Assembly: GCA_964648855.1 (NCBI GenBank)
Contig: CAZYLT010000001.1
Coordinates: 342,299-406,298 of the forward strand
DNA length: 64,000 bases
Direction of reading: 5' to 3'
From: an uncultured archaeon
GTDB taxonomy: Archaea > Asgardarchaeota > Thorarchaeia > Thorarchaeales > Thorarchaeaceae
Part shown: positions 4,647 to 30,604 of the stretch, piece after piece
How the letters are laid out: each line of letters begins with the position of its first letter
Numbering within the stretch: the first letter of the stretch is position 1
Translations under genes and position numbers: made by a program
Notes under the pieces: generated by a model
Databases searched by the model: none
The model's input: only the letters and a program-made list of their open reading frames with translations
What the model was told of the DNA's origin: nothing

Positions 4647-4690
4647 AGAGAGTCTAAATCCTCAGAGAGCACGTCAGAGGAGTATTGGCA

Positions 4691-5818
4691 ATGGCAAGTG
4701 AGGCGTCTGAAGAGAAAAGAAAGAACCAAAGCAAAGAATCGCCCGAGTATGTTAGGACGAGTCTTGCTGCCGCAATGACCATGAACAAGCTCCCAGGAAA
4801 ATTCTATCGTGATGCAAAACTCTACTGCATCAATCTCCTTTTGACTTATGATGAAGGATGCCATGCAAGATGTGCGTATTGTGGTCTCTCAAACTCTCGA
4901 GAAGTGGATACGGATTGGGTGGACAACAGCTTCATCAGGGTTGACTGGCCAATTTATCCTCTCAACGAAGTGAAAGAGGCACTATCAGATGGAACTTGCC
5001 CGCATGTAGAGAGAGTCTGTGTCTCGATGATAACACTAGGTTGTGCTCGAGAGGACTGTTTTAAGGTCGTTTCAGAGTTAAGAGAGGTAATCCCGCAGAT
5101 TTCGGTCTTAATCACACCGACCATTTTGAATGAGAATTGGCTGATTAGAGCCAAGGAGGCTGGAGCAGACAAGGTGGGTATCGCAGTAGATGCTGCCACT
5201 CCAGAACTATTTGAGAAGCTGCGGGGAAACGGAGTCAACGGCCCCCACAAGTGGAAGAAATATTGGCAAACCGTTGAGGAAGCAGTTGAAGTATTTGGTA
5301 AAGAGAATGTTGGAATTCATTTGATAGTTGGAGTTGGAGAGACCGAAAAGGAGATGGTTGATGCAATACAACGTGCCCAAGACCTTGGCGCTGACACCCA
5401 TCTCTTTTCTTTTTTCCCAGAAGAGGGTTCAGATATGCAAGACGATCCACAGCCACCTCTGGGTACGTACCGTCGGATTCAGGCTGCACGATATCTGATA
5501 AATAACGAATTAACCTCTGCAAAGAGAATGCAATTCAATAATCAAGGTCAGATTACAGATTTTGGCATCAGCAAGACCGAGTACAATCAAATGATGTCTG
5601 AGGGAAAGGCATTCATGACCTCGGGTTGCAACGGAACAACCATGGATAATGCATGCAATCGACCCTTTGGAAATTGCACCCCCTATCAGGCCTATATTGG
5701 ACACTGGAGGAACTTCCCGCTATCCCCTGATAAGGACGATTTGAAAAAGATTGCAGAACAGATACGAGACTACTCATTGAGCTATGAGATGGACGATGAC
5801 TATTTTGAAGATGAATGA
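4691..5818 (+). CDS. Radical SAM protein, biotin-synthase-related; candidate archaeal two-component lipoyl synthase subunit (LipS1/LipS2 type)
   Basis: CHARCAYCGL CxxxCxxC radical-SAM cluster motif. There is a second Cys-rich region (CNGTTMDNACNRPFGNC). It sits directly upstream of, and overlapping, a second radical SAM gene and two LplA genes. Track start 4685 is TTG; ATG at 4691. Confidence 0.6.
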   Translation: MASEASEEKRKNQSKESPEYVRTSLAAAMTMNKLPGKFYRDAKLYCINLLLTYDEGCHARCAYCGLSNSREVDTDWVDNSFIRVDWPIYPLNEVKEALSDGTCPHVERVCVSMITLGCAREDCFKVVSELREVIPQISVLITPTILNENWLIRAKEAGADKVGIAVDAATPELFEKLRGNGVNGPHKWKKYWQTVEEAVEVFGKENVGIHLIVGVGETEKEMVDAIQRAQDLGADTHLFSFFPEEGSDMQDDPQPPLGTYRRIQAARYLINNELTSAKRMQFNNQGQITDFGISKTEYNQMMSEGKAFMTSGCNGTTMDNACNRPFGNCTPYQAYIGHWRNFPLSPDKDDLKKIAEQIRDYSLSYEMDDDYFEDE

Positions 5819-6806
5819 GAGTCTTCTTGAACAGTGCTTCGAAGCAGAGGAGTATGATCTTAAGCCACTCTTTGAGATGGCTTTTGAATTGTCAAGAAAG
5901 AAGTTCTCAGAGGACATTATCTTCTATTCTCCAGGAATGATTCATTATCAGACCGAATTTCATGAGGCAACTGACCCATTTAGGTTTCCAAGCATCTCAA
6001 TAACTGGTAATTCTTGTGCCATTGGCTGCGAGCATTGTAGAGGAAGGCTTCTAGAAAGCATGATACATGCCACTACTCCAGAGGATCTCTGGAGAATCTG
6101 TGAAGAAATTGTCAGAAAGGGAGGCTCAGGGTGTCTGATAAGCGGTGGTTCAACTTCGCGAGGCAACACACCCTTGGAGCAGTTCATACCAATAATAGAG
6201 AGAGTAAAATCCGACTTAGACCTCAATGTCGTTGTCCACACAGGAATAGTATATCCCGAGATTGCTGAGGAACTTGGTCGAGCGGGAATAGATGGAGCCA
6301 TGCTTGATATTATTGGCTCACACCAAACCTTGGAAGAGATTTACCACCTCGATATGCCAGTGAGCATATTTGAGGACTCCATGCGACTTCTTAATGAGTA
6401 TAATGTTCCAATGATGCCACATATTATTGCTGGGCTATACCATGGGAAGCTCAATGGTGAGGACCAGGCAATCCGAATGATTGGAAAATATAATCCGGAT
6501 TCAATAGTGATTGTTGCCTTTATGCCGCTCGATGACACCCCAATGGAAAAAACGAATCCAGCGACACCCATGGATATAGCGAGGGTGGTACTTGGAGCGC
6601 GGTTGTACATTCAGGACCGCCCAGTCGTTCTTGGGTGTGCACGACCTCTTGGTCTACATCGTAGAAGCCTAGACCGACTTGCTATCGATGCGGGAGTGAA
6701 TGCCATAGCCTACCCTACTGAAGAAGGATACTCCTATGCAAAGAAGAGAAACCTATCAATCGGTTTATCGGACCAATGTTGTTCCTTGATAACTAAAAAA
6801 CTGTGA
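5784..6806 (+). CDS. Radical SAM protein, second candidate lipoyl synthase subunit (LipS1/LipS2 type)
   Basis: CAIGCEHC CxxxCxxC motif. It overlaps the upstream radical SAM gene by 35 nt at ATG 5784, or by 8 nt if the ATG at 5811 is used. That ATG is embedded in gATGAATGA, a classic translational-coupling overlap. 340 aa. Confidence 0.6.
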   Translation: MRWTMTILKMNESLLEQCFEAEEYDLKPLFEMAFELSRKKFSEDIIFYSPGMIHYQTEFHEATDPFRFPSISITGNSCAIGCEHCRGRLLESMIHATTPEDLWRICEEIVRKGGSGCLISGGSTSRGNTPLEQFIPIIERVKSDLDLNVVVHTGIVYPEIAEELGRAGIDGAMLDIIGSHQTLEEIYHLDMPVSIFEDSMRLLNEYNVPMMPHIIAGLYHGKLNGEDQAIRMIGKYNPDSIVIVAFMPLDDTPMEKTNPATPMDIARVVLGARLYIQDRPVVLGCARPLGLHRRSLDRLAIDAGVNAIAYPTEEGYSYAKKRNLSIGLSDQCCSLITKKL

Positions 6807-6810
6807 TAGC

Positions 6811-8439
6811 ATGAACAGAAATGACTTCGACAAATGGCGTCTCATTGACACAGGCATTTTGACAGGTGCCCAAAATATGGCCCTTGACGACGTCATCCTC
6901 GAGTGCCATGCGTACGAGAATACTCCGAATACCATAAGATTCCTTCAGTTCAATCCATCCACTGCATTGGTAGGATATCACCAATCGATTGAACAAGAAA
7001 TCAGAATCGATTTTTGTAAACACCATGGCATAGATATAAACCGACGACTTACGGGAGGAGGAGCCATCTTGTTTACGCCGACATGTCTTGGTTGGGAAGT
7101 CTTCGCAGATAAGTCGGTGTCAAGGATTAGAGATTTGAGAACTGACCTCGATAAACTTGCCCAATTAATCTGCGAAGGAACAGTAAGAGGACTTCAAGAA
7201 TTGGGAATAGAAGCAGAGTTCAGACCCAAGAATGATATCGAGGTCAATGGACGAAAAATCTCTGGGACTGGGGGGACTGAACGAGAGGATTCGTTCATGT
7301 ACCAGGGAACATTACTCGTAGATTTTGATGTCGAGCTGATGCTAAGAGCGCTTAGAATTCCTGTAGAGAAACTGCAGGATAAGGAAATTGAAAGCGTGAA
7401 AGAGAGAGTGACATGTCTGAAGTGGGAGTTAGGCCGGGTTCCACCGTTAGCGGATATTAAGCGAGCGATAGCTGATGGATTTCAGGAGGTTCTTGACATT
7501 CAACTGCAGGACAGGGGATTGTATCCAATTGAGTCGGAAATGTATAATCAAAAACTCCCCGAATTCGAATCTGAAGATTGGATAAACATGGTGAGAAAGC
7601 CTCTTGACTGGGCGGGAACCGTAAGCACGATGCGAAAGACCCCAGGAGGATTGATCAGGGCGTCTCTTTCAATAGATATCCCAGGCAACTATATTGTGAG
7701 TTCCTTCATTACAGGAGATTTCCAGGTATTTCCCCAGAGAGCTATCATGGACTTGGAGTCAACGTTAAAGAATTCAGACGCAAGCTATGCATCCATCAGA
7801 AACAACATACTGGACTTTTTCGAGTCTTCAAGAACCAGAATTTTCGGAATACCTCCTGAAATCGTAGCAGATACGATAATTGAAGCAGTGAAGAAAAAGT
7901 CCTTCGTCAACTACGGCTTTACATTGGATGACTCAAATCAATTGATGACCGTGAACTTCTTGCCTGATGAGTTGGAACAACAGCATTTTGATTTCGTGTT
8001 GTTGCCGTATTGTGCTAAACTCCTAGGCTGCGAGTATCGGTTTGTCGAAGGATGTTCAATGTGTGGCGGATGTTCTACCAACGATGTCTATAAACAGATT
8101 ACCGAGCTGAATGTCCCCGTTAGAACAATCCAGAACTTCGAAGATCTTGTGGAGACAGTTCACGAGTTTAAAGAAAAGGGGGCGCGTGGCTACGTTGGTT
8201 CTTGCTGTGATGCCTTCTACAGTAAGCATTACCAGGATTTCGTTGACATGGGCGTACCTGCTCTTCTAGTTGACGTAGATGATTCGACATGTTATGACTT
8301 AGGAGAGGAAGAAAAGGCATACGAAGGAACTTTCGAGGGACAGACGGTGCTGAAAACTGACCTAATATTGAAGGTTATCAATACGCTAACAAATATGGGA
8401 ATACTCCACAGTGGGGTGGTTCAACATCGCTCAGTATGA
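6811..8439 (+). CDS. lplA: Lipoate-protein ligase A family enzyme with a ~170-aa C-terminal Cys-rich extension
   Basis: BPL/LPL catalytic-domain motifs RRLTGGGAILF (RRxxGGGAV) and the lysine in GRKISGTGG. 542 aa against ~340 for canonical LplA. The extension contains CxxxxC, CxxCxxC and CC clusters (CAKLLGCEYRFVEGCSMCGGC ... GSCCDAF). Confidence 0.7.
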   Translation: MNRNDFDKWRLIDTGILTGAQNMALDDVILECHAYENTPNTIRFLQFNPSTALVGYHQSIEQEIRIDFCKHHGIDINRRLTGGGAILFTPTCLGWEVFADKSVSRIRDLRTDLDKLAQLICEGTVRGLQELGIEAEFRPKNDIEVNGRKISGTGGTEREDSFMYQGTLLVDFDVELMLRALRIPVEKLQDKEIESVKERVTCLKWELGRVPPLADIKRAIADGFQEVLDIQLQDRGLYPIESEMYNQKLPEFESEDWINMVRKPLDWAGTVSTMRKTPGGLIRASLSIDIPGNYIVSSFITGDFQVFPQRAIMDLESTLKNSDASYASIRNNILDFFESSRTRIFGIPPEIVADTIIEAVKKKSFVNYGFTLDDSNQLMTVNFLPDELEQQHFDFVLLPYCAKLLGCEYRFVEGCSMCGGCSTNDVYKQITELNVPVRTIQNFEDLVETVHEFKEKGARGYVGSCCDAFYSKHYQDFVDMGVPALLVDVDDSTCYDLGEEEKAYEGTFEGQTVLKTDLILKVINTLTNMGILHSGVVQHRSV

Positions 8440-9478
8440 TGTCGTCGTAGTTGGAGGAGGCCCCTCCGGCGCAGTTACTTCGCTTCTTCTGGCAAAAGAT
8501 GGCATGAAGGTCCTCCTACTTGAAAAGGGACATGAAAAAAGGCACAAAGCCTGTGGAGGAGTATTGCCTTCTGTTGCCCCTGATACCATTGAAGACATAA
8601 TAGACTCGGAAATTCCTGAGGAGGTTTTCGAAAATCCGAGAGAATTGGGTCTCTACTACGTTCCTCCAAGCGGGCCTAATAGTGGAGGTAGAGTTCGAAA
8701 CTACACCATTCATAATATAAATCGAACCCGTTTCGATTTTTGGTTACGCGAGTTAGCTGAAGAGGCAGAAGTGGAAATCCGATACAACACAAAAGCCACT
8801 TCAGTTTCAATAAATGAGAAGTCAACTAGGGTATCAATTCAGGGGCAGAAGGCAACTATCGAAACGCCTATTCTGGTTGGTGCAGATGGAGTAAGGTCGA
8901 CTGTTCGTAAATCCCTTTTTTCCGACACCAATGTTCCAATCATGGTCGTGGGCCAAGAGAAATGGATTGCGAAAGGAGATTTTGAAGACTGCTTTTACGG
9001 ATTCTTTCATGACAAATATTCAGTAGCTTATGCATACCTGATACCCAAACAAGATAGTATCCTCATTGGTCTTGGTGTGGAACCAAACAGAAAGCCAAGT
9101 TATGCGGAATCGCTAGATAGCTTTCGTTCAATGCTAATTGATGAGTTCTCGTTTGCCCCTGAAAAGATTGTTCGAAGGGAAAGTTGGGCAATTCCATTTG
9201 GATATTTCATGCCAGGTAAAGAGAATGCGATACTGGTCGGTGATGCTGCAGGGCTCTGTAATCCATTGTCTGGAGAGGGGATTAGATTGGCAATTGAGTC
9301 AGCGGAGTCAGCAGCCAATATCATTGCACATGCAGATCAATCTAAAATCATAGAAGATTATCAGCATGAGGTGAAAGGACTAGCTGATATGATTAATGAC
9401 CTCAATGATTTTGTAAGAGGGCTTGATAACGAAAAACGCGAACAATTTGTCTCAGAGGAACTATCAAGAGGATTCTGA
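8411..9478 (+). CDS. FAD-dependent oxidoreductase of the geranylgeranyl reductase (GGR) family
   Basis: N-terminal Rossmann DVVVVGGGPSGA, the GGR-type conserved Cys motif KACGGVLP, and a C-terminal GD motif LVGDAAGLCNPLSGEGI. GTG start overlaps the upstream LplA by 29 nt. Confidence 0.7.
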   Translation: MGWFNIAQYDVVVVGGGPSGAVTSLLLAKDGMKVLLLEKGHEKRHKACGGVLPSVAPDTIEDIIDSEIPEEVFENPRELGLYYVPPSGPNSGGRVRNYTIHNINRTRFDFWLRELAEEAEVEIRYNTKATSVSINEKSTRVSIQGQKATIETPILVGADGVRSTVRKSLFSDTNVPIMVVGQEKWIAKGDFEDCFYGFFHDKYSVAYAYLIPKQDSILIGLGVEPNRKPSYAESLDSFRSMLIDEFSFAPEKIVRRESWAIPFGYFMPGKENAILVGDAAGLCNPLSGEGIRLAIESAESAANIIAHADQSKIIEDYQHEVKGLADMINDLNDFVRGLDNEKREQFVSEELSRGF

Positions 9479-9526
9479 TAGCAAGAGATATAGTTGCCAA
9501 TCGCACACATTCTTTTTGTGTCCACT

Positions 9527-10618
9527 ATGAAAGAGCGATGGCGATTACTTGATTTGGGCGCTATTGAACCGCTTGAAACACAAATTATCTATGATATGGT
9601 TGCTCAAGGGATTACAGAGGGAGAATCACAGAATACAATCATCATTTGCTGGCCCGCTGAGCCCTTAGTTAGTGTAGGCTATTTCCAAGAGATTGAGAAG
9701 GATATAGACCTTGCATTTTGCCGGAAAAACGATATTGTGGTGACACGCCGTGTAATCGGGGGTGGAGGAGTCTACCTAGATGATGGACAGCTATTCTACC
9801 AATTAATTGGGCGAGTTGATAGTCCAACTACGCCAAAGCCCATTGATGCCTATTATCGGAAATTTCTCAAAGCACCAGTTCAAGCATATAGGAATCTTGG
9901 CATTGAAGCTGAATTTCGACCAGTTAATGATATTCAGGTCAATGAAAAGAAAATATCAGGAAATGGAGCAGGAGATGTTGGTGATGCTCGCATTCTCACC
10001 GGCAACATAATTTTAGATTTTGACTTCGAAATGATGGTGAAGGTTCTTCGAGTACCAAGTGAGAAATTTCGGGATAAAGTATACAAGAGCCTCAAAGACC
10101 GGCTGTCAACAATTCTACTTGAAACTGGATCAATGCCACAAAAAGACGAGATTAAAACCGACCTAATCAGGCTTTACGAGGAAACCCTTGACATTGAACT
10201 TGAGAAGGGCAAGTTATCTTCATGGGAAAAGAGCAGGATGTCAGAGCTCCGCTCCAAATACAAGTCAAATGAGTGGCTTCACTGGAGGAGTGGAGGCAGA
10301 CTTGATGCTCGAACTGTTAGAATATCCGCAACAGCCTCTGTTGGTACAGCGAGCCATAAGGCCGAAGGCGGGTTGATTCGGGTGACTGCAGAGGAGATAG
10401 AAAATGAGATCAATGAAATTGTCATTAGTGGAGATTTCTTCATGCTTCCGTCCACAGCAATCGGAGAACTTGAGAACAACCTGAAGGGCTCTACTCTTTC
10501 TAGAGACGCGATACTGGAAAGAATTAAGGAAAGCTATACTCAGCTGGATATTGATTCGCCAGGAGTCAAGCCAGAAGATATTGCTGATGCGATTGAGTTG
10601 GCCTTCGAACAAAAGTAA
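9527..10618 (+). CDS. lplA: Lipoate-protein ligase A (second LplA-family paralog, catalytic plus C-terminal accessory domain)
   Basis: RRVIGGGGVYL and NEKKISGNGAG lysine motif. ~364 aa from the ATG at 9527; the track start at 9494 is TTG. Confidence 0.75.
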   Translation: MKERWRLLDLGAIEPLETQIIYDMVAQGITEGESQNTIIICWPAEPLVSVGYFQEIEKDIDLAFCRKNDIVVTRRVIGGGGVYLDDGQLFYQLIGRVDSPTTPKPIDAYYRKFLKAPVQAYRNLGIEAEFRPVNDIQVNEKKISGNGAGDVGDARILTGNIILDFDFEMMVKVLRVPSEKFRDKVYKSLKDRLSTILLETGSMPQKDEIKTDLIRLYEETLDIELEKGKLSSWEKSRMSELRSKYKSNEWLHWRSGGRLDARTVRISATASVGTASHKAEGGLIRVTAEEIENEINEIVISGDFFMLPSTAIGELENNLKGSTLSRDAILERIKESYTQLDIDSPGVKPEDIADAIELAFEQK

Positions 10619-10675: not shown

Positions 10676-11761
10676 ATGCCGTCGGATGTTAGCTTTTCTG
10701 CGATTGCGCCCGGAAGAGTCTGCATCTTTGGAGAACACAGTGACTACTTGGGACTAGATGTGATTCCCGCAGCAATTAGCATGCATATCGAGATTTCTTG
10801 TTCACCACGCGATGATCGTCTAATGGATATCAGATATTCGGATTTGGGAACAAAGGATACGTTCGAGATTGATACAAAAATCGATTATGCCCATGAGAGG
10901 GACTATGTTAGAAGTGCATTTAATGTACTTAGAAGGCAGGGACTTACTCTCTCTTCAGGATGGTCAATGTATGTTAGAGGAAACATACCAATTGCAGGAG
11001 GACTATCCAGCTCGTCAGCATTAGCTGTCGCATCAGTCCTGGCATATTCTAGAATGGCTGGAGAATCCCTGAATCCCAAAGCATTAGCCGAGCTTGCATT
11101 CCAGGCTGAGGTCAAGGAATTTGGAGAAAGCGGAGGTATGATGGATCATTATGCATCTGCGTACGGTGGAATCATACACTTGACTACAAAACCTAAGATA
11201 GAGGTGACCAGAATCCCTACATCCATTAGTGGGTTCGTCATTGGTGACTCGGGGGAGGAGAAGAAAGATACCGTGGGAGATCTGGAAGAAATCCGCAATT
11301 TGGCTGAGAAGGGATACAACAAACTAGCACAGTACGTAGACAATTTCGACCAAACCAAAACAGCCCTTGAGAAGGTTCAACCATTCCTGAAACGGCTTTC
11401 CTCAAGAGAGCAGACAGTGGTGGAAACGACCATCAAAAATAGGGACTTAACACAGCGTGCATATGATACTCTAAAGTCTAGTAACTACGAACCTGAAGAG
11501 TTAGGCTCAATGATTGATCAACATCATATCTATTTGCGTGATGGTCTGAAGCGATCGACCAAGAAAATAGAAAAGATGATACGAGCTGCAAAGAAAGCAG
11601 GAGCTTTGGGCTGCAAAATCAACGGAAGCGGTGGAGGAGGAACGATGCTAGCATATTGTCCAGGAAAGGTGGATGTTGTTTCATCAGCTATAGAGAGAGC
11701 AGGGGGGACACCATATGTGGTCAGTATTGGACAGGGCGCCCACCTGAGCGTCCAAGATTGA
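10676..11761 (+). CDS. GHMP-family sugar/small-molecule kinase (galactokinase-like signature)
   Basis: N-terminal APGRVCIFGEHSDYLG (galactokinase-type GRxNxxGEHxDY), GHMP ATP-binding loop PIAGGLSSSSALAVA, and a C-terminal GSGGGG. Confidence 0.7.
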   Translation: MPSDVSFSAIAPGRVCIFGEHSDYLGLDVIPAAISMHIEISCSPRDDRLMDIRYSDLGTKDTFEIDTKIDYAHERDYVRSAFNVLRRQGLTLSSGWSMYVRGNIPIAGGLSSSSALAVASVLAYSRMAGESLNPKALAELAFQAEVKEFGESGGMMDHYASAYGGIIHLTTKPKIEVTRIPTSISGFVIGDSGEEKKDTVGDLEEIRNLAEKGYNKLAQYVDNFDQTKTALEKVQPFLKRLSSREQTVVETTIKNRDLTQRAYDTLKSSNYEPEELGSMIDQHHIYLRDGLKRSTKKIEKMIRAAKKAGALGCKINGSGGGGTMLAYCPGKVDVVSSAIERAGGTPYVVSIGQGAHLSVQD

Positions 11762-11766
11762 AGAGG

Positions 11767-13329
11767 TTAGTCGCTCGATGCAAGATCTTCCATTCTGCGT
11801 TCAACTATGCCAAGTATTTCGTCTTTGAGATTCTCGCTCTCTTCAATGAGCTCCTCAACTTCCTTTCGAATGTTCTTGACGAATTTCTCGTCCTTAATAT
11901 TGTCAAGATTTATTCTGACATTGAGAGATGCTGCCTTGATTGCGGCTGAGAGTGCATATGCAGCGCCGCCAGCATCAGTTATGGCATTGATATTGCCCTT
12001 CTCTGCAGCAACTTTTGCATGAGTGAGTGCCTCATATGATTGCTTCATGGTTTCTAATGGAATCTCAGCAGCATGAATTGTTGCTTCCTCTACGGCTTCT
12101 TCTTTCGTTTGTTTTTCCTCTTCATTTCCTTCAGGAAGCTTATAAGTTTCCATCACTTTTTCAAAGGCTTCAGAGTCCTTCTCAACCATGTCCAGCAGAA
12201 CACCCCTGTTTGTTTCACAGGCATGTCGATGATCAAGCATCTCCTTTTTGATTGCAGCAAATTTTCTTCCAGTCAATGAGAGACCTGTGACCATGCATAC
12301 AAGAGCCGCGCCATAAGAGCCCATAACTGCAGCAACACTTCCTCCACCAGGAGTTGCTCTGGCTCGTCGCACCTGATTCCCGAATTCGATTAAGGACATT
12401 TCAGTGAACGACTTCTCAGTGGGCTCTTCAGCACCACCAAGATAATACAAATCGAGAATCATTGATTCATCGAGATTCTCTGGTTGCAGATAGTACTTGA
12501 GAGCGTCAATCAAAGCGAAGAGAGGTACCATTCCAATAATCTCGGTTTCAACGACAGTGGCACCAAAACGTTTCGCTTCGTTCCTCACAACTTCAAGAAC
12601 CTGATGTATCTTGGTTCTCTTGGGATGGGTGAGATTGCATGAAACCTGAACCATTCCCTTATCCGGCAAGTCCAGGCCAATACCTTGCACATACACAAAG
12701 CCACCAGTGGTTGCTCTAACTGCATTCGCACAGACCTTTGCTACCTCAACATTAGTTGTATTAAGGTTGAAATTGATTGCAATCAGGAAGAATCGTGCTC
12801 CGGTAGCAGTGGCACCAGCTGTTGGATTGATTTTGTTAGGGCCATAATCAGGAGTCCTACTCTCATCCTCTCCGATGGTTTCACGAAGCCCTTCAAATTC
12901 TCCTTGACGAATATTAGGCAATTCTTCTCGTTCAGGACGCGTTGCGGATTTCTCATAGAGGTATACGGGTACATCATGCTTCTCAGAATATTCCTTGGCG
13001 AATTCTTTTGACAGCTCTATACACTCGCCAATGGTTACTCCGTGTAGCGGAATGAAAGGAACAACATCAACTGCGCCCATTCGAGGGTGAGCTCCCTCGT
13101 GTTTGCTCATGTCAATTCGTTCTACTGCAACATCCGCTGCCTTCAGAGCTGCCTGTTTAACCTTCTGTGGTTCTCCTATGAATGTGAATACCGACCTGTT
13201 GTGATCAGGGTCATATTCAACATTAAGAAGACGAACACCATCAACGCTCTTGATGGCATCAGCCAATTCATCAATTACCTCTTTTCGACGACCCTCGCTG
13301 AAATTGGGTACACATTCGACAACCTTCAT
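11767..13329 (-). CDS. ftcD: Bifunctional glutamate formimidoyltransferase / formimidoyl-THF cyclodeaminase
   Basis: N-terminus MKVVECVPNFSEGR is the hallmark start of the formiminotransferase domain. The C-terminal ~200 aa are helical, consistent with a cyclodeaminase domain. ~520 aa. Track start 13341 is TTG; ATG at 13329. Confidence 0.75.
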   Translation of the reverse strand: MKVVECVPNFSEGRRKEVIDELADAIKSVDGVRLLNVEYDPDHNRSVFTFIGEPQKVKQAALKAADVAVERIDMSKHEGAHPRMGAVDVVPFIPLHGVTIGECIELSKEFAKEYSEKHDVPVYLYEKSATRPEREELPNIRQGEFEGLRETIGEDESRTPDYGPNKINPTAGATATGARFFLIAINFNLNTTNVEVAKVCANAVRATTGGFVYVQGIGLDLPDKGMVQVSCNLTHPKRTKIHQVLEVVRNEAKRFGATVVETEIIGMVPLFALIDALKYYLQPENLDESMILDLYYLGGAEEPTEKSFTEMSLIEFGNQVRRARATPGGGSVAAVMGSYGAALVCMVTGLSLTGRKFAAIKKEMLDHRHACETNRGVLLDMVEKDSEAFEKVMETYKLPEGNEEEKQTKEEAVEEATIHAAEIPLETMKQSYEALTHAKVAAEKGNINAITDAGGAAYALSAAIKAASLNVRINLDNIKDEKFVKNIRKEVEELIEESENLKDEILGIVERRMEDLASSD

Positions 13330-13468
13330 GCGTGTCACCAAGCCCGTCGGATAAGTTCAAGCAAAAAAGCATTTGGGAATCGGGGGTTTAGTCGAAAAAT
13401 GATGTCAGATAGGCAAAAAAGAGACGCGAATTGCACATCTGGTCATTTCTTGTTCCAAGCAGCTAGGG

Positions 13469-14404
13469 TTAGCTTGTATATCCACCATAATCTATGGCGT
13501 CGACAATGAAGACATTGGTCTGGTTCTGCAGATACGTATAGGCTGCAAGTACATTTCTGAGTAACATGGCAATAGTCATTGGCCCCACACCACCAGGTAC
13601 CGGAGTAATGTAAGATGCTTTCTCCTTAACAGTTTCAAAATCGACATCACCCTTTGGCGTAGCCACATCTATGACAATTGCACCCTCTTTAACCATCTCT
13701 TCAGTGATAAAATACGGGTCGTCATTGGATTCCCGAAGTCCAACCGCAGTGACAAGAATATCTGCTTGCTTAGTCATACTTGAGATGTCCTTGGTCTTCG
13801 AATGGCAAACGGAAACCGTAATGTCTCTGTCAAGCAACATGAAAATTAGTGGTTTGCCGACTATAGTAGATCGGTTAATGATGACCGCGTCTTTTCCTTT
13901 CAAATCAACCGGTAGTAAATCCAGCATCGTGACAATACCTTGAGGAGTCGCAGCACTCAAGAATTCATTCCCATGGAATAACCGATATATGTTCCTCGGG
14001 GAAAATCCATCAACATCTTTACCAGGCGATATTGCATCAATAACCTCCTCTTCATCGATATGACTTGGCAGAGGCAACTGTACGAGTATACCATGAACAT
14101 CACGGTCTTGATTGAGTTCCTGTATCAGGTCGATAAGCTCCTCTTCGGTCGTGTTCCCCGGTAAATCATGGGTTTCGGAAAGAATACCGGCCTTTTCACA
14201 GGCTCGCTGTTTCATACGCACATACATTTTGGACCCTGGGTCCTCACCAACAATAATGGCGACTAGCTTTGGCGGTGTTCCGTGTACCTCAGTCAGATGC
14301 TGAACTTCTTCCTTGATGTGCTGTCGTATCTTTTTTGCCAGAGTCTTGCCGTCAATGACTTTTCCTTCTACGAATTCCTCAAGTGCAATGTCGTATTCGC
14401 TCAT
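13469..14404 (-). CDS. folD: Bifunctional 5,10-methylene-THF dehydrogenase / 5,10-methenyl-THF cyclohydrolase
   Basis: VIDGKTLAKKIRQHIKEEVQ ... PKLVAIIVGEDPGSKMYVRMKQRACEKAGI ... HGILVQLPLP ... GGVGPMT are all FolD hallmarks. 311 aa. Confidence 0.85.
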   Translation of the reverse strand: MSEYDIALEEFVEGKVIDGKTLAKKIRQHIKEEVQHLTEVHGTPPKLVAIIVGEDPGSKMYVRMKQRACEKAGILSETHDLPGNTTEEELIDLIQELNQDRDVHGILVQLPLPSHIDEEEVIDAISPGKDVDGFSPRNIYRLFHGNEFLSAATPQGIVTMLDLLPVDLKGKDAVIINRSTIVGKPLIFMLLDRDITVSVCHSKTKDISSMTKQADILVTAVGLRESNDDPYFITEEMVKEGAIVIDVATPKGDVDFETVKEKASYITPVPGGVGPMTIAMLLRNVLAAYTYLQNQTNVFIVDAIDYGGYTS

Positions 14405-14415
14405 GTTGAATCCTC

Positions 14416-16011
14416 CTAAAATACGCCTGATATGTTGCCATCCTCATCTATGTCCATCTCTTCTGCCGCGGGATCAGATGGGAGTCCAGGCATCAACATG
14501 ACATCTCCAGTGTACACAATAACAAAACCAGCACCAGCGCTGACATCAGCTCCACGTACGGTTAAGACGAAATCTTCCGGTCGCCCCTTCTTGCGAGGAT
14601 CATCACTGAGGCTGAATTGTGTCTTCGCCATGCATATTGGGAGCTCACCATGCCCACGTTTCTTCAACGACCATAGTTCTCCATTGGCATTATCTATGTA
14701 CCTGACACCCTTTGCTCCATAGATACTCTTGGCAACCTTCTCAATTTTCACTTTGAGGTCTTCATCGACATCATAGGTGTAATTCACTTCGTTTCGAGTT
14801 CCTGTAATATCAAGTACTGCCTTCGCCATATCCTTTCCACCCTCGCTACCCTTGGCAAATACCTCTGAAACCTCCATCCTCCATCCCTTTTTCTCGCAGA
14901 ATTCCCGTACTTCTGCAATCTCCCCATCAGTATCATCAGGGAATCGGTTCACAGCAATTGCAAATGAAGGACCAAAGTTTTGGATGTTCTCTGCATGTTT
15001 CGCCAGATTTGGTAAGCCCTTCTTGAGGTCATCATCACCCTGCTCTTTCAGGGCTCTTATGCTGGTGATGATCACAACTCCGTCGACATTAAGGTTGCCA
15101 GCACGAGTGACGATGTTCATAAATTTCTCAGCACCGAGATCTGCTCCAAATCCTGCCTCGACTACCACATAGTCAAATAGACGCAGTGCAATGTCAATCG
15201 ACATTATTGAGTTCGTTCCATGGGCTATGTTTGCAAAGGGGCCGATGTGAATGAGGGCTGGTGTTCCCTCAGATGTCTGTACCAGATTCGGCTTTAGGGC
15301 ATCCTTCAACAAGACAGCCATTGCACCGTTCGCATTGATATCTTTGGCATATACTTCATTGAGGTCGTAATCTCGAGAGAGCAAAATATTGCCAAGCCGC
15401 TCCTTTAGGTCGGTATAGCTATTTGCCAAAGCCATTATTGCCATGATTTCGGAGGCAGCTGTAATTACATAGCTATCCTCTCTTGGAAACCCATTGTCCT
15501 TTCCGCCAAGGCCGACAACGACTTTTCTTAACGCCCGGTCATTCATGTCTATCGTTCTTGTCCAGTAGACTCTTCGTGGATCAATGCCTGCTTCATTCCC
15601 TTTGTTCACATGATTATCCAGCATTGCAGACAGAAGGTTGTGTGCTGCGGATATAGCTGGAAAATCCCCGGTGAATAGGAGGTTAATCTTCTCAAAAGGA
15701 TGAACTTCTGATTTACCACCGCCAGCGGCACCGCCCTTGATTCCAAAAACGGGACCCAGTGATGGTTCACGAAGTGTCACCACTGCGCTCTTCCCGAGAG
15801 CATTGAGCGACATAGACAAGCCTATAGAGTTTGTAGTCTTACCCTCTCCCGCGGAGGTCGGAGTGGTGGCAGTTACAAGAATCAGTTTTCCTTTCCGTTC
15901 TCCAAGCTCCTTCCGAATATTGAGATTGATTTTGGCCATGTGTTTTCCATAGGGTTCGAGATACTTTTCAGGAATTCCTGCCTCTTCTGCGACTTCAGTA
16001 ATGGGTTTCAT
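14416..16011 (-). CDS. fhs: Formate--tetrahydrofolate ligase (formyl-THF synthetase)
   Basis: PTSAGEGKTT P-loop variant typical of Fhs, plus GIKGGAAGGG. ~530 aa. The likely start is the ATG at 16011 (MKPITEVAEEAGI); the track start at 16113 is TTG. Confidence 0.85.
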   Translation of the reverse strand: MKPITEVAEEAGIPEKYLEPYGKHMAKINLNIRKELGERKGKLILVTATTPTSAGEGKTTNSIGLSMSLNALGKSAVVTLREPSLGPVFGIKGGAAGGGKSEVHPFEKINLLFTGDFPAISAAHNLLSAMLDNHVNKGNEAGIDPRRVYWTRTIDMNDRALRKVVVGLGGKDNGFPREDSYVITAASEIMAIMALANSYTDLKERLGNILLSRDYDLNEVYAKDINANGAMAVLLKDALKPNLVQTSEGTPALIHIGPFANIAHGTNSIMSIDIALRLFDYVVVEAGFGADLGAEKFMNIVTRAGNLNVDGVVIITSIRALKEQGDDDLKKGLPNLAKHAENIQNFGPSFAIAVNRFPDDTDGEIAEVREFCEKKGWRMEVSEVFAKGSEGGKDMAKAVLDITGTRNEVNYTYDVDEDLKVKIEKVAKSIYGAKGVRYIDNANGELWSLKKRGHGELPICMAKTQFSLSDDPRKKGRPEDFVLTVRGADVSAGAGFVIVYTGDVMLMPGLPSDPAAEEMDIDEDGNISGVF

Positions 16012-16295
16012 TTTTCCTACACCAGTGAAAGTAAACTTTTGATTAGTTGTTCCAATCAGTGCAAGTATTGACTGATAAAATGCACCGTATGGCTGTAGAG
16101 GCGGTTTGGTCAATCATGGTTGTGTCAGAAATGCACTCTTTTACAAAAGGTCTTGGCAATTATTACTGAAAAAAAGATGAGGCAGGGTGTTTATCCGCCT
16201 ATTGGGCTGAGAAATATGAATAGGCTTCCTCTCGAGGCACTGCCAGATGCATTGCCAGATGAAATTGATGTCGAAAAATATGTGATTTGCACGTA

Positions 16296-23408: not shown

Positions 23409-23951
23409 TTATTCGCTTGAGCGTCTAGTACTAACGAGTGTCTTTCCAAGATTCTCGAAGATGTCAACGATACCCTCGCCCGTCTTTGCAGATGACTCCA
23501 CGTAGGGCATGCCGTGTGCATCAGCGAATTCCCTGCCCTCCTTTGGCTCAACCACACGGTCAGGCAAGTCCGTCTTGTTTGCAACTAGCACCAAGGGAAT
23601 CTTTTTCTTAATCGCCTTTTCCAATTCATTGAGCCACTCATCAAGCAGAAGGAATGTTCGGCGTCGGGTGACATCGAATACGAGCACGCCGCCGCTTGAA
23701 CCTCTATAGTACATTGGTCTCAAAATCTGAAAGCGGCTCTGCCCCGCCACGTCCCAGATTTGCAGCTTCACAGTCAGGTTTTCACGGCTCTCACGTATAT
23801 CGATATTCTTGACAGCGAACTGAGAGCCTATCGTTGTCTTGTAATCGGTACGGAAGAAGCCATGAGAGAAGCGAGTGACGATTGCAGTTTTTCCTACTGC
23901 ACCCTCTCCGAGAATGACCACTTTAAACAGGTAATCGTACGTACTGCTCAT
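23409..23951 (-). CDS. Small GTPase of the Ras superfamily (Rab/Arf-like, eukaryote-type)
   Basis: G1 GEGAVGKT, G2 YKTTIGSQF (switch I Thr), G3 WDVAGQSRF (DxxGQ), G4 VANKTDL (NKxD) and G5 ESSAKTGEG (SAK). ~180 aa from the ATG at 23951. Confidence 0.85.
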   Translation of the reverse strand: MSSTYDYLFKVVILGEGAVGKTAIVTRFSHGFFRTDYKTTIGSQFAVKNIDIRESRENLTVKLQIWDVAGQSRFQILRPMYYRGSSGGVLVFDVTRRRTFLLLDEWLNELEKAIKKKIPLVLVANKTDLPDRVVEPKEGREFADAHGMPYVESSAKTGEGIVDIFENLGKTLVSTRRSSE

Positions 23952-23996
23952 CAGATTCAATTCCGACTCTTGTTTTGAGTGAAACGGTTGGGCTCA

Positions 23997-26937: not shown

Positions 26938-27596
26938 GTCAATAATTTACGACTGTTCTTTTTGTAGAAAGGGCCTGCGTGGCGGGGCATAGAAACAGTG
27001 AACGCCTCTGCGCGCGAACAAGCGCCTTGGACGCCTCTCAGTTTTGTTCGAGCATCATAGAAAGTCAAGTAGAAGCCTTCAGCTTTTGAAATCTGAGATT
27101 CGTGTTTCTTCAGTGCCAATAAGCTCTCATCGTAGGACGTGGTGATATCCACTATAAAGTGAGGATGTGAATGGAGAGTGTTGATTTCCATCTGTAGCAT
27201 GCGATCCACTCTATGAGGTTCTTCGAACATTGTCTTGTGCGATGCCCATTCGATAGATTCCATAACAAGCTCCGCACAGATTCTGTGGTTACGATTGTAG
27301 TCCTCGCTAGAGTGCGTGATTATGATATCGGGACGGGACTGGAGGATAACCTCAATTACTGAGTCGGAAAGACTTCTATCGATTTCAAAGTCCCCTCGAT
27401 TGGAAGGGTATATCTTTCTGACACCCAATATGTCACAAGCATTTGCAAGCTCCTCATTTCGTTTGTCATTTCCGGTTAAGCAAAGGACATCTACTGGAAT
27501 GTCCGCCTTGGTATGATTTCTGATTGTCCCTCCAGCACCAAGACATTCGTCATCGGGATGTGCGGTAATCACAAGAATAGAATCCAAATCTGCCAT
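26934..27596 (-). CDS. bshB: PIG-L / LmbE-family N-acetylglucosaminyl deacetylase (BshB/MshB-like)
   Basis: LVITAHPDDECLGAGG is the AHPDDE zinc-binding motif. ~220 aa from ATG ~27596. The track TTG at 27626 would overlap the divergent neighbour. Confidence 0.75.
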   Translation of the reverse strand: MADLDSILVITAHPDDECLGAGGTIRNHTKADIPVDVLCLTGNDKRNEELANACDILGVRKIYPSNRGDFEIDRSLSDSVIEVILQSRPDIIITHSSEDYNRNHRICAELVMESIEWASHKTMFEEPHRVDRMLQMEINTLHSHPHFIVDITTSYDESLLALKKHESQISKAEGFYLTFYDARTKLRGVQGACSRAEAFTVSMPRHAGPFYKKNSRKLLT

Positions 27597-27710
27597 ACAG
27601 GTTACTCGGAGATGGTCACTAATCAAGTTTTACCAATGCTTCAGGGGTATATTCCCGCACCAAGCACCTTAAAGGTAGGTAGTCTTGATACGATACAAGA
27701 GTTGACAAGG

Positions 27711-28874
27711 GTGAAAATTGGAGTCAATCTATATCCTTCAGTCGGTGGTTCAGGATATCTTGCCACTCGACTAGGCCAGCATCTAGTTGAGAGAGGACAC
27801 ATAATCCATTTCATAACATATCAAAGACCTTTCTCATTAGTGTGGGAAGATACGCGAGGAGCATTTGTGGACCTAGTTGACACTATCGACTATCCATTAT
27901 TCAAGGACATCTGCCCGCCCTATTCAATGGCGCTAGCTTCGAAGATTGTCCAAGTTTCTCAAAACTCCCAACTGGATTTGATTCATTCACACTATGCCAT
28001 CCCACATGCACTATCTGCATACATGGCAAGAGAAATTGTGGGGATACCTTATGTCATTACGATGCATGGCTCAGATGTACACTCGTTAGGTCTGGACCCA
28101 GCATATCAACCAGTAGTAAAACACACAGTTCAACAAGCAAGTGCGGTCACCACGGTAGCGGCCTTTCTCCGAGATAGTGCTTACGAAAAGTTAGGTATTG
28201 ATAGAGAAATTCATGTTATTCCAAATTTCATTGATGTTGAGAAGTACAAACGGAAAGAGGGTATACGACTTGTAGTTGAAAGCGGTTGTGTATCGGTGAG
28301 AACAGAGGAGGATGCCGAGGCCATCAACCCAGATCAGAGAGTCCTACTCCATGTTTCAAACTTCAGGAAAGTCAAGCGAGTCGTTGAACTGATAGAAATA
28401 ATGAAAATGGTAGTGGATGAGAAGCCAGATACCCGGCTTGTTCTCGTAGGAGATGGACCAAAGAGAGTAGAGGTTGAGCGTAAGATAGAGGAGCTAGATC
28501 TTTGCCAAAAGGTACACCTTCTAGGAATCAGAAGCAATGTACATGAAATCATGTGTTCATCTGATATGCTCTTGATGAATTCCTTGCAGGAAGGGATGCC
28601 ACTTGTTATCCTAGAGGCCATGGCATCGCAATTACCTGTTGTTACGACACCAGCTGGTGGAATACCGGAATTAGTAAGACCCGGAAAGGATGGGTGGGTA
28701 ACTGAAGGTTATGAAAAGGAAGAATTTGCTCATGCGATTCTAACCCTTCTTGATGATGACGCAAAACTGAAGAAATTTGGACATACTGGATGGAAGAGAG
28801 TCAAGGAGAAATTCTCAGCAGACATAATTGTACCAAAATATGAACAGGTCTTCCAAGAAGCAGTTCAAAAATAG
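27711..28874 (+). CDS. bshA: GT4-family retaining glycosyltransferase resembling BshA/MshA (N-acetyl-alpha-D-glucosaminyl L-malate synthase-like). A PIG-A-like GlcNAc transferase is the alternative reading.
   Basis: N-terminus VKIGVNLYPSVGGSGYLATRLGQHLVERGHIIHFITYQRPFSL closely resembles the BshA start (KIGITCYPSVGGSG...HFIT) as I recall it. C-terminal EX7E motif EGMPLVILEAMASQLPVVTTPAGGIPE. The GTG at 27711 gives a BshA-like N-terminus; in-frame ATGs further upstream (27636, 27513) would overlap the divergent deacetylase gene. Confidence 0.75.
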   Translation: MKIGVNLYPSVGGSGYLATRLGQHLVERGHIIHFITYQRPFSLVWEDTRGAFVDLVDTIDYPLFKDICPPYSMALASKIVQVSQNSQLDLIHSHYAIPHALSAYMAREIVGIPYVITMHGSDVHSLGLDPAYQPVVKHTVQQASAVTTVAAFLRDSAYEKLGIDREIHVIPNFIDVEKYKRKEGIRLVVESGCVSVRTEEDAEAINPDQRVLLHVSNFRKVKRVVELIEIMKMVVDEKPDTRLVLVGDGPKRVEVERKIEELDLCQKVHLLGIRSNVHEIMCSSDMLLMNSLQEGMPLVILEAMASQLPVVTTPAGGIPELVRPGKDGWVTEGYEKEEFAHAILTLLDDDAKLKKFGHTGWKRVKEKFSADIIVPKYEQVFQEAVQK

Positions 28875-28885
28875 GAGAGTATTGA

Positions 28886-30604
28886 GTGACCAAGAGAAGC
28901 ATTACACAGGCATACTTGGACTATATTTGGAAGTCCAAACACGAGGAGTTGGCATCTGAACTCTACAACGACCCACCTATTTTGATGAACGACTTGAGAA
29001 AGCGCGCAGTCAATTTGAGAAAGACGTATGCTGAGCAAGACTGGCATACAGATGATAGGACTGAGAGATTGCAGAGGGCGTTGACAAGGATTAACCGTGA
29101 GCTAGGTTGTCTAAGTCCGAAAGTCAAGAAAAGCATTGAGAAACTACATGAGGGCGCTGTTGAGGCAGCTCATCAAAGCGTTGTATTAGGCGGCCCTTGC
29201 TATATTCTGAACAAGGCCATCACAGCAGAAAGATTGGCGGTCCTGAACTCGACCGAGCAGACATCTCTTGTCCCATTTTATTGTATTGCTGATTATGATA
29301 TAGTTCAGAGTGAGTTGACCCATACGAGAACGCCCTTGATGGGACCAAGTGGAAATATAGTGAGCATACCGGTTCCTGATGAATACGAGTTCTCACCTGT
29401 GAGTGTTGTGCCTTTACCCGAATATCATTGGTATGAGGAAGCGGAGGAGAGTATTAGAACGGGGTATAGCCCATTGTTCAAAGTACTTGAAGGAAATACA
29501 CGAAAGCTCTTTGACGAAAGGCTTGAATATGCACTTTCCATAACCAGACAAGCATTTCTTAACTCCGAAACTCTGGGGGAATGGGCACAAAGGATTATTG
29601 CAAGGATTGTGAACATTGAAGGAAACCTAGGACTACCTCTAGTTCCAGCTTCTGACGATGAGATACGAAAACTATGGGCGCTTGGCATGGAATTTCTTCT
29701 CTCCAAAGAGATACGAGAGAATTTCGTTCAGATGTACGGTCAAGCCACGAAAAGAATTCAGAATAACGGGTTTGAGCCAGGTGCAGGAGGAAGGGATAGC
29801 GCGTATGTCCCATTCTTCTATGAATGCCAAACAGAATCATGTAATCGGGCTAGAACAGAGCTGTTCTATGAATTGGATGGGTCGAAAGCATTACTCAGAG
29901 GAGAATGTCCTCTTTGCAACGAAAAAATCCAATTAGAAGTCGATGCGGAAACTCCAGATCTATCAGACCAAGCTACGTTTCTATCACCCAGAGTTGATTC
30001 TCGACAATTTGCAGTCGATTCCTCGATCCCTATCATAGCTCATGCGGGAGGGCCGGGAGAGACTGCGTATTATGCGCAAGTCATACCGATTGCAAGAAAA
30101 TTGAAGATACCATTTCCTATGTTTGTGAAATACCCTCGTGTCTTTTTCAATACCCCATGGAGCGAAGATATGGCTAACCAGCTAAAGACAAGCGAGATTC
30201 CCGTGCTTCACAGAGGTGAGATGTTTCGGGCCATGGGACAAGTTACTCGAAATAGAAACAAAGAGAACTATGACGAGATGAATGGGGCAATCCAGGATCT
30301 TGCAGGAATCATTTGGACGACACATGATGAGCTGTTAGAATCTTTGCATAAACTTGAGAAGGAGATTGAGGAAACCGAGGAGCATGTAGAGGAAGACAGA
30401 CTAGAGCTGAAATTCAAAATTGAAACCTATCTGTCTTGGGCATATGGTCGGTATGCAAAGGGAAAGAATGCACAGGAGTCATCTTGGTCATGGATTGAAT
30501 GGGTACTAAATGCGGGACTTGGTGATTTATTTGGACCGTACGAGCGGGCCTATATGCAACAAATGAAGAATGGAGCAACGCTTTTTGTAAATTTCATGGT
30601 ATGA
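28886..30604 (+). CDS. Large conserved protein, candidate BshC-like enzyme (third gene of a bacillithiol-type pathway), with an internal Cys4 zinc-ribbon
   Basis: 572 aa with a GTG start 12 nt after the bshA-like stop. Segments SVVLGGPCYIL, VPFYCIADYD and IIAHAGGPGETAYYAQV resemble conserved blocks of BshC (YllA) as I recall them (VVGGQQAGLLTGP / IPIFWVAGEDHD / IAGPGE). The memory-based match is uncertain. Zinc-ribbon is CQTESC ... CPLC. The C-terminal ~130 aa are coiled-coil-like. Confidence 0.45.
   Translation: MTKRSITQAYLDYIWKSKHEELASELYNDPPILMNDLRKRAVNLRKTYAEQDWHTDDRTERLQRALTRINRELGCLSPKVKKSIEKLHEGAVEAAHQSVVLGGPCYILNKAITAERLAVLNSTEQTSLVPFYCIADYDIVQSELTHTRTPLMGPSGNIVSIPVPDEYEFSPVSVVPLPEYHWYEEAEESIRTGYSPLFKVLEGNTRKLFDERLEYALSITRQAFLNSETLGEWAQRIIARIVNIEGNLGLPLVPASDDEIRKLWALGMEFLLSKEIRENFVQMYGQATKRIQNNGFEPGAGGRDSAYVPFFYECQTESCNRARTELFYELDGSKALLRGECPLCNEKIQLEVDAETPDLSDQATFLSPRVDSRQFAVDSSIPIIAHAGGPGETAYYAQVIPIARKLKIPFPMFVKYPRVFFNTPWSEDMANQLKTSEIPVLHRGEMFRAMGQVTRNRNKENYDEMNGAIQDLAGIIWTTHDELLESLHKLEKEIEETEEHVEEDRLELKFKIETYLSWAYGRYAKGKNAQESSWSWIEWVLNAGLGDLFGPYERAYMQQMKNGATLFVNFMV

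Follow-up and report, generated by a model that had tools for sequence, protein, structure and literature searches.

A lipoate ligase with a cysteine-rich C-terminal domain

We analyzed a stretch of 64,000 nucleotides (hereafter the window) from an uncultured archaeon of the Thorarchaeaceae (GenBank assembly GCA_964648855.1, contig CAZYLT010000001.1, positions 342,299 to 406,298 of the forward strand), which carries a lip operon. The gene of interest in this operon is a single uninterrupted open reading frame (ORF) encoding a lipoate ligase, Lpl(AB), fused to a C-terminal Cys-rich domain of the DUF116 family, and the identical 542-residue protein is recorded on 4 contigs. Two radical S-adenosylmethionine (SAM) genes lie upstream and a gene for a LipT-like flavoprotein overlaps its 3' end (Table 1).

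The ligase part of the fusion is matched by LplA chains of the Protein Data Bank (PDB) at E-values of 1e-20 to 1e-22. The LplB-like accessory domain scores 29.8 bits against NF053749 (cut-off 65), is matched over residues 276-350 by PDB 3r07_C, LplA subunit 2 of the Thermoplasma ligase (its small subunit; E 6.6e-5), and has a fold confidently modelled by AlphaFold2 (AF2). Because both of these matches stop there, the canonical ligase is taken to end near residue 360. The initial annotation, made from the sequence alone, had set the start of the extra domain at nucleotide 7830, which corresponds to residue ~341 and lies ~25 codons within the LplB-like domain; the true start is near nucleotide 7903. 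What it had proposed beyond that boundary, a Cys-rich extension, is real: the number of Cys in the last 178 residues is exactly eight (401, 407, 415, 418, 421, 465, 466 and 494), and the 364-residue ligase part has five. The two strings that it quoted are both present, CAKLLGCEYRFVEGCSMCGGC at residues 401-421 and GSCCDAFY further on. Its reading of the CxxCxxC and CC arrangements also stands, but the first spacing, given as CxxxxC, is actually Cx5C, and the overall pattern is C-x5-C-x7-C-x2-C-x2-C ... CC ... C. The identity with DUF116, which had been offered as a possibility, was borne out by Pfam PF01976 (gathering score 25): the complete protein reaches 27.4 bits, and its C-terminal part, scanned by itself, 29.9 bits. 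The match in the window fusion begins at profile position 41 of 155, and PF01976 is matched by all 38 aligned domain sequences (best E 9.6e-15).

Table 1. Features of the lip operon and of the fusion protein (window coordinates)
Feature	Position	Strand	Details
LipS2-like radical SAM protein	4685..5818	+	ORF of 377 aa; public gene call starts at 4691; Pfam Radical_SAM
LipS1-like radical SAM protein	5784..6806	+	ORF of 340 aa; public gene call starts at 5796; overlaps lipS2
Lpl(AB)-DUF116 fusion protein	6811..8439	+	542 aa; LplA catalytic, LplB-like, then C-terminal Cys-rich DUF116 domain
LplA catalytic domain	6868..7485	+	Residues 20-225; PF21948 (LplA-B_cat), E 9e-46
Candidate catalytic Lys149	7255-7257	+	Lys of NGRKISG; in T. 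acidophilum LplA (2ars), aligned with the second Lys of GEKKIMG
LplB-like accessory domain	7636..7887	+	Residues 276-359; NCBIfam LplB NF053749
C-terminal Cys-rich DUF116 domain	7903..8436	+	Residues 365-542 (178 aa); Pfam match residues 394-496 (7990-8298)
First Cys cluster	8011..8073	+	C401-x5-C407-x7-C415-x2-C418-x2-C421; loop following β-strand 395-399
Adjacent Cys pair C465-C466	8203..8208	+	GSCCDAFY, residues 463-470; end of a β-strand
C494	8290..8292	+	Within invariant T-C-Y motif
LipT-like FAD oxidoreductase, geranylgeranyl reductase family	8411..9478	+	ORF starts 29 nt before the fusion stop
Second, unfused Lpl(AB) paralog	9494..10618	+	374 aa; PF21948 and Lip_prot_lig_C; LplB 62.8 bits; 15-nt gap after lipT
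GHMP kinase	10676..11761	+	57-nt gap after the second Lpl(AB)

The extension is a conserved and predicted soluble DUF116 subfamily

None of the eight Cys varies among 70 aligned full-length fusions sharing 47-80% identity, nor among the 38 domain sequences, whose identity ranges from 30 to 82%, a conservation that exceeds chance. Adjacent to the CC pair, many homologs carry a third Cys at position 464 (the consensus of the 70 sequences being GCCCEAFY). Residues Y400, K403, E444 and Y495 of the domain are likewise invariant in both alignments; H473 does not vary among the 70 fusions either, and is kept in ~95% of the 38 domain sequences. The junction between the LplA and DUF116 parts is conserved among the 70 fusions as well.

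A search with the full-length protein returned 4,838 ligase relatives, and the best 120 share the ligase-plus-extension architecture, so that the extension is conserved among orthologs; its lack there would, by the initial annotation's own account, have spoken against that reading. The uncut proteins among these 120 measure ~520-550 aa and are 48-80% identical, most carrying both Pfam domains; named sources are Thorarchaeota (which include the nearest named relatives), Bathyarchaeota, Chloroflexota, Anaerolineae and Thermoflexales. An exhaustive single-sequence search of 1.84 billion proteins with a 183-aa C-terminal query gave just 182 representatives at E ≤ 0.001. Most of the matches listed are 500-560 aa long and matched over ~355-520, and are fusions as judged by length and position.

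In the full texts searched, DUF116 as a whole word turned up only in Makarova et al. 2015 (PMC5898192) and in a gene list of a 2025 preprint. The canonical proteins start with two transmembrane helices and conserve six or more Cys, among them a CxxCxxC motif, and a flavodoxin-like fold, metal binding and, from gene context, a part in electron transfer were predicted or proposed for them (PMC5898192). Single-sequence and profile searches started from the window domain recovered only its own subfamily, without the canonical membrane-anchored members, and no membrane-type segment was found in the fusion (highest 19-residue Kyte-Doolittle mean 1.17). Since all 38 aligned domain sequences nevertheless match PF01976, the domain on the window ligase is, as far as its sequence tells, a distinct soluble DUF116 subfamily without membrane anchor. 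Two other identities were considered. No Fer4 family matched any of the 38 domain members at E ≤ 1, which speaks against a classical ferredoxin, and an HdrB-like CCG domain, prompted by the CC motif, had neither profile nor fold support.

AF2 produced confident models of the full-length protein (pLDDT 88.3, pTM 0.83) and of the domain alone (pLDDT 89.5, pTM 0.87), in which the DUF116 domain adopts a three-layer α/β, flavodoxin-like fold. In the full-length model C401 stands just after one of the core β-strands (residues 395-399) and the next four Cys lie within a 20-residue irregular loop; the CC pair closes another β-strand and C494 comes after the following strand. Model confidence is lowest in the Cys-bearing loops, with a pLDDT of ~80 for the loop of the first cluster. 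Foldseek searches gave nothing at E ≤ 0.001 (best E 0.043), thus no close solved relative, and a resemblance to HdrA was weak and not significant (E 0.2, with a match probability of ~0.5). The Cys pattern, the fold and the earlier analysis of the family (Makarova et al. 2015, PMC5898192) together lead us to predict that the eight Cys bind a metal or iron-sulfur (Fe-S) cluster.

The ligase part retains the features expected of an active enzyme. Its candidate catalytic Lys149 aligns with the Lys that we take to be catalytic in T. acidophilum LplA (Table 1), it contains the RRxTGGG loop, and K149 and G82-G84 are invariant across the 70 aligned fusions. With 138.7 bits against the TIGR00545 equivalog model (cut-off 280), it represents a divergent ligase lineage, and by its retained motifs it looks competent.

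The fusion is widespread and tightly linked to lipT, lipS1 and lipS2

A pattern scan over one genome per species (185,579 species) detected stretches encoding a relative of the domain in at least 227 species-representative genomes. Locus counts below refer to the best 80 of these 227 stretches, in which ORFs were called and then searched with the window proteins. The best 80 loci come from archaea (Thorarchaeota, Bathyarchaeota, Thermoplasmatota, Altiarchaeales, Baldrarchaeota and, within Nitrososphaeria, Terraquivivens) and from bacteria (Chloroflexota, Desulfosarcina, Sporomusa, Caldisericota, Cloacimonadota and Sumerlaeota). A Methanomassiliicoccales chromosome gave a tblastn match to the domain (L083, 10001-10471), yet no intact DUF116 ORF was delimited there by the stop-to-stop caller.

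The initial annotation had called for a comparison of fused and stand-alone forms in other archaeal lip loci. The DUF116 domain is fused to the LplA catalytic domain in 77 of the 80 loci, and stand-alone genes within a lip operon are found in L089 and L090. The ligase signature is largely kept in the 77 fused proteins, the Lys in 74 and the TGGG loop in 73. In a rough neighbour-joining tree all 77 fused ligase parts form one clade, which does not include the orthologous second Lpl(AB) copies from five Thorarchaeota loci (the window copy at 9494-10618 was not part of this tree). Because the fused ligases form one clade that leaves out the second paralogs, the data fit a fusion that arose once and spread together with the lip module.

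The strongest clue to function is the overlapping downstream lipT, which the initial annotation did not mention. Among the 76 loci with room for it, lipT lies directly downstream on the same strand in 66, elsewhere in the locus in 8 and nowhere in the locus in 2; in 52 of the 66 it and the fusion's stop codon overlap, with a median gap of -14 nt. In the window, the LipT-like protein scores 176.8 bits against TIGR02032 (GG-red-SF; cut-off 158.8) and a single nucleotide-binding motif was detected in it, at the N-terminus. The presence of a two-component lipoyl synthase beside the fusion, asserted in the initial annotation, is also supported, albeit with scores below the curated cut-offs. The best NCBIfam match of the first upstream gene is LipS2 (NF053743, E 1e-64, 218.9 bits, cut-off 270; the runner-up, a radical SAM family, reaches 55.6 bits), and that of the second is LipS1 (NF053742, E 7e-62, 209.4 bits, cut-off 230; BioB comes next with 35.2 bits). 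The fusion gene follows the LipS1-like gene after a 4-nt gap. In other genomes, LipS1 and LipS2 are both encoded in 36 of the 40 loci having full flanks, and a GcvH-like acceptor is encoded nearby in 17 of these 40.

Variant architectures separate DUF116 from an active ligase

Several rearranged forms of the fusion were found. P0167 joins LplA, DUF116 and LipT in a single chain of 825 aa, and downstream of its gene come a LipS2-like gene, TusA and DsrE. In P0286, DUF116 is joined to the N-terminus of LipT and the gene is located between LipS1- and LipS2-like radical SAM genes. P0233 (1,117 aa; L003, 4965-8318) has the order LplA-LplA-DUF116 and adds a CdhB-type CO_dh domain (PF02552), a domain whose fold is presumably of the nucleotide/flavin-binding type. 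Around the P0233 gene lie LipS1, LipT, LipS2, an LbpA/GcvH-like gene, TusA and DsrE. P0248 combines LplA and DUF116 with the same CdhB-type domain.

In the Sporomusa/Bacillota loci L039, L051, L062 and L084 (~8300-10530 in each), the fused ligase domain is degenerate and its GGG loop is changed. The catalytic Lys of these Sporomusa-type fused copies is replaced by Glu in three loci from metagenome-assembled genomes (MAGs); the complete Sporomusa rhizae DSM 16652 genome has a frameshift that splits the fused gene, and there the Lys position, inspected by eye, reads Gln. Sporomusa-type loci also have an unfused ligase of the same clade beside lipT, which would be the active copy.

Convincing separate DUF116 genes are confined to P0156 of L089/L090 and to the proteobacterial P0350 and P0359. 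P0156 is a stand-alone DUF116 protein of 188 aa, found on seven contigs, and is encoded last in an operon (L089, 1-7567; L090, 151-5345) of the order GcvH, Lpl(AB), LipT, two radical SAM genes (LipS2/LipS1-like) and DUF116. The L089 operon is preceded by a gene for a GlcD-like flavin adenine dinucleotide (FAD) oxidase and a gene for a Fer4/CCG protein. In a Burkholderiales MAG (L085, 4052-9046), genes for an MnmL-like radical SAM protein, ubiU, ubiV, an Lpl(AB)-like protein, a separate DUF116 and ubiT follow one another; the NRDD-family and radical SAM genes adjoining this ubiT are taken to be nrdDG, i.e. anaerobic ribonucleotide reductase. An Acidiferrobacteraceae MAG (L088, 4338-8503) has a radical SAM gene, ubiU, ubiV, Lpl and DUF116 in succession, the contig ending at the DUF116 gene. 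Other candidates were discarded: the start of P0139 lies just 26 nt from a 1-kb contig's end, many other short matches that seemed to stand alone lie on contigs of ~1-3 kb or are labelled partial, and L091 is fragmented. P0002, a 231-aa protein on a 988-bp ENA contig, joins an epimerase-like N-terminus to the last ~110 residues of DUF116 and is probably an assembly chimera.

The existence of LipT fusions, of fusions with a dead ligase and of a stand-alone DUF116 in a lip operon suggests that the function of DUF116 would belong to the LipS1/LipS2/LipT module rather than to ligase chemistry, of which it may be independent, and that the domain could act in trans.

A possible redox relay for lipoyl synthesis

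We tentatively favor the view that the DUF116 domain is an Fe-S redox module which, together with LipT, provides LipS1 and LipS2 with electrons, the ligase serving as scaffold; this is a real possibility, though one that we rate somewhat short of even. The domain would bind one or more Fe-S clusters via its eight invariant Cys and have as its redox partner LipT, the FAD protein of the overlapping gene. This DUF116-LipT chain would be a dedicated electron supply for the two radical SAM enzymes, and the octanoylated carrier protein would be held by the body of the ligase, such that acyl attachment, electron supply and sulfur insertion could take place in one complex.

Three arguments speak for such a relay. 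First, the invariant Cys (a CxxCxxC resembling that of ferredoxins, and a CC pair, among them) are probably fully ligating and lie on a fold of cofactor-binding type. Second, coupling of the domain to LipT, a flavoprotein, is near-obligate, the two are occasionally fused, and fusions to CdhB-type domains are found as well; since only one dinucleotide-binding motif was detected in LipT, a protein redox partner for it is plausible. The geranylgeranyl reductases of some archaea receive electrons from ferredoxin, so DUF116 could also be the donor of LipT rather than its acceptor. The analysis establishes which family the domain belongs to, how conserved it is, what fold is predicted for it and which genes it is linked to; from these features we infer the binding of metal, the redox role, the direction of electron flow (from LipT to DUF116 or the reverse) and the formation of a complex. 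Third, LipS1 and LipS2 are encoded at the same loci and need an external reductant, for which human FDX1 would be a precedent by analogy. The T. kodakarensis enzymes perform only ~1-1.5 turnovers with a generic ferredoxin/reductase/NADPH system (PMC9585515), and human lipoyl synthase depends on the dedicated ferredoxin FDX1 (PMC10470009).

Several points weigh against the relay. The invariant Y400, K403, E444 and Y495 and the near-invariant H473 hint at a ligand-binding or catalytic site rather than a simple relay. We know of no DUF116 protein for which a metal or cofactor has been demonstrated. Only the scaffold argument accounts for a relay that is joined to the ligase instead of to LipT or LipS. 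No lipT or lipS was found within the stretches fetched for the proteobacterial loci L085 and L088, whose ubi-operon context is unexplained. Finally, a Thioalkalivibrio LipS1/S2-LipT cluster works in E. coli without DUF116 (PMC10332631), from which it follows that the domain is not universally required.

The second-ranked explanation, which we consider unlikely, is that DUF116 carries a transferable Fe-S cluster or persulfide sulfur and rebuilds the auxiliary [4Fe-4S] clusters of LipS1/LipS2, as NfuA/NFU1 do for LipA, LipT then reducing S0 to sulfide. NfuA/NFU1 carriers rebuild the auxiliary cluster of LipA and thereby make a self-sacrificing enzyme catalytic; they are not known to have any sequence or fold similarity to the DUF116 domain and have a very different Cys content. 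A regeneration factor would be needed because LipS1 and LipS2 draw their sulfur from the auxiliary clusters, which are consumed, the enzymes stopping at ~1 turnover with a physiological reductant (PMC9585515). A CC pair is moreover among the auxiliary-cluster ligands proposed for LipS1 in the same paper, the DUF116 domain is tethered to a substrate-binding ligase and encoded inside lipS1/lipS2 clusters, and TusA and DsrE sulfur-transferase genes flank the variant loci L002 and L003. Most loci, the window included, nevertheless lack TusA and DsrE, and the closest genetic partner is a flavoprotein rather than a cysteine desulfurase or scaffold. Eight invariant Cys in a small domain look like fully ligated, stable centres, whereas known cluster carriers have few Cys per subunit and labile, often bridging clusters. 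Given these Cys, the coupling to LipT and the fusions to LipT and to a CdhB-like domain, a stable redox relay fits better than a transient carrier.

It is also conceivable, if rather improbable, that DUF116 and LipT are not a shuttle but an enzyme acting on the acyl or lipoyl group held by the ligase, or on a precursor, for instance by reduction of an unsaturated C8 chain, a disulfide or a persulfide. LipT belongs to the geranylgeranyl reductase family, whose members reduce substrates directly, and keeps a K-A-C-G-G motif near the FAD site; the Cys of DUF116 are surrounded by the invariant Tyr, Lys and Glu and the near-invariant His; and loci with a dead ligase or without lipT still keep the domain associated with the LplA fold. 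Some bacteria have canonical DUF116 in fusion with polyprenyl synthetase, a link to lipid-chain enzymes (PMC5898192), and the source of octanoate in archaea is described as an open question in PMC10332631. Such an enzyme would, however, leave the strong co-occurrence with LipS1/LipS2 unexplained, no homology suggests a substrate, and the stand-alone DUF116 of L089/L090 needs no covalent ligase.

We give equally little credence to a structural or regulatory metal site, that is, Zn or an oxygen- or redox-sensitive cluster which would stabilize the protein or enable the ligase only under reduced, anoxic conditions. All named hosts belong to groups known as mainly anaerobic. The split proteobacterial version is encoded in ubiUVT operons, by name those of anaerobic ubiquinone synthesis, and in L085 next to the putative nrdDG; a gene for a CRP/FNR-type regulator, located downstream or on the opposite strand, is present in L085 and also in L087, there beside a related gene. 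That model confidence is lowest in the Cys-bearing loops would also agree with such a site. A regulatory add-on is nonetheless not expected where the ligase is dead or lost, nor would it be fused to LipT, and the Cys pattern is not that of a classical zinc ribbon with paired CxxC.

That a sequencing frameshift or gene-calling error merged the ligase with a separate downstream gene, an artefact of which the initial annotation had warned and for which the different frames of the two parts in L084, L086 and L091 and in the proteobacterial L085, L087 and L088 might speak, has a negligible chance and is rejected on comparative data, since the window frame is uninterrupted, the identical protein is recorded on 4 contigs, 77 of 80 loci from other genomes are fused, the junction region is conserved and the full-length model is well scored as a whole.

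In the wider sense, DUF116 may be an unrecognized class of Fe-S redox or cluster-delivery proteins which, tethered to LplA and acting with LipT, makes LipS1/LipS2 catalytic in anaerobes; we put this forward with slightly greater reserve than the relay itself. The LipS1/LipS2 route calls for an in vivo reductant of the radical SAM clusters and for a means of restoring the sacrificed auxiliary clusters. Fused to the ligase, translationally coupled to lipT, occasionally fused to LipT and kept even with a dead ligase, DUF116 is a concrete candidate for the missing component. If this is true, it would provide the first functional anchor for a family widespread in archaea and bacteria and would define the role of LipT too. 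Sporomusa species (with isolate or MAG genomes) and Moorella sp. Hama-1 are possible experimental hosts.

Other genes of the window

The second, unfused Lpl(AB) paralog that follows lipT is found in only some Thorarchaeota loci. Next to it, the GHMP kinase gene also follows the lip operon in eight Thorarchaeota-type loci (L005, L007, L008, L011, L014, L018, L023 and L001, the latter being the copy of the window locus). As this arrangement is absent from other lineages, it is probably only lineage-level synteny. Directly beyond the lip operon, on the reverse strand, are tetrahydrofolate (THF) one-carbon genes (11767-16113: formiminotransferase-cyclodeaminase, FolD and formate-THF ligase). A Pfam scan of the 46 larger window ORFs detected no LbpA/GcvH, TusA, DsrE or other sHdr-pathway markers and no lipoate acceptors.

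Further along, the reverse strand encodes a Ras-family small GTPase (23409-23960; Pfam Ras, E 1e-48), a gene type typical of Asgard archaea and in keeping with the Thorarchaeota origin to which the nearest homologs of the fusion point. A GT4 glycosyltransferase gene (27513-28874, +) is followed by a BshC-like gene (28886-30604, +; Pfam Rossmann-like_BshC, E 2e-19), a pair that could serve the synthesis of a bacillithiol-like low-molecular-weight thiol in this archaeon.

Comparison with known systems

Public annotation already shows the fusion under the names "DUF116 domain-containing protein" or "lipoate--protein ligase family protein". As to the fusion itself, which the initial annotation had supposed to be undescribed, we found no description in the searched papers naming DUF116, and a term search of the lipoate-pathway papers PMC6067878, PMC10332631 and PMC9585515 brought up neither the fusion nor its variants nor a link with lipT. 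The ligase-LipS1/S2-LipT pathway and DUF116 as an uncharacterized family are already known; judged by the papers searched, their fusion, the lipT link and the variants appear to be new.

The nearest known system is the sLpl(AB)-LipS1/LipS2-LipT pathway (Cao et al. 2018, PMC6067878; Tanabe et al. 2023, PMC10332631), with which the window operon shares the gene set and the tight operon arrangement. It consists of an archaeal-type ligase, two BioB-like radical SAM enzymes for sulfur insertion and LipT of the geranylgeranyl reductase family, whose electron delivery was proposed but not demonstrated (PMC10332631). The window ligase differs by its additional DUF116 domain and by a lipT gene overlapping its end, and the passages of the two papers matched by term search mention no such extra domain.

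With the family known as DUF116, PF01976, COG1852 or arCOG02078, the window domain shares a globular Cys-rich domain, the CxxCxxC motif and a predicted flavodoxin-like fold. Canonical DUF116, with its two transmembrane helices and at least six Cys, is linked to genes for sulfite/nitrite reductase, an ArsA-like ATPase or polyprenyl synthetase (PMC5898192). By contrast, the window subfamily is predicted to be soluble, has eight invariant Cys and is nearly always fused to LplA, the Lpl(AB) body being located where canonical DUF116 has its N-terminal side.

A bifunctional LplA-LipA fusion (NF053790) likewise joins a lipoate ligase covalently to a sulfur-insertion component, but that component is the radical SAM synthase, unlike in the window fusion. 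The latter scores only 96 bits against NF053790 (cut-off 800), with a match restricted to the ligase part (residues 48-331), and has no C-terminal radical SAM domain. Finally, FDX1 acting on human lipoyl synthase (PMC10470009), and the flavodoxin or ferredoxin systems of bacterial LipA, would be functional analogs in that a small redox protein is dedicated to the synthase. FDX1 is a [2Fe-2S] ferredoxin of unrelated fold and is neither fused nor adjacent to a ligase, and the parallel drawn here from established knowledge is thus one of analogy and not of homology.

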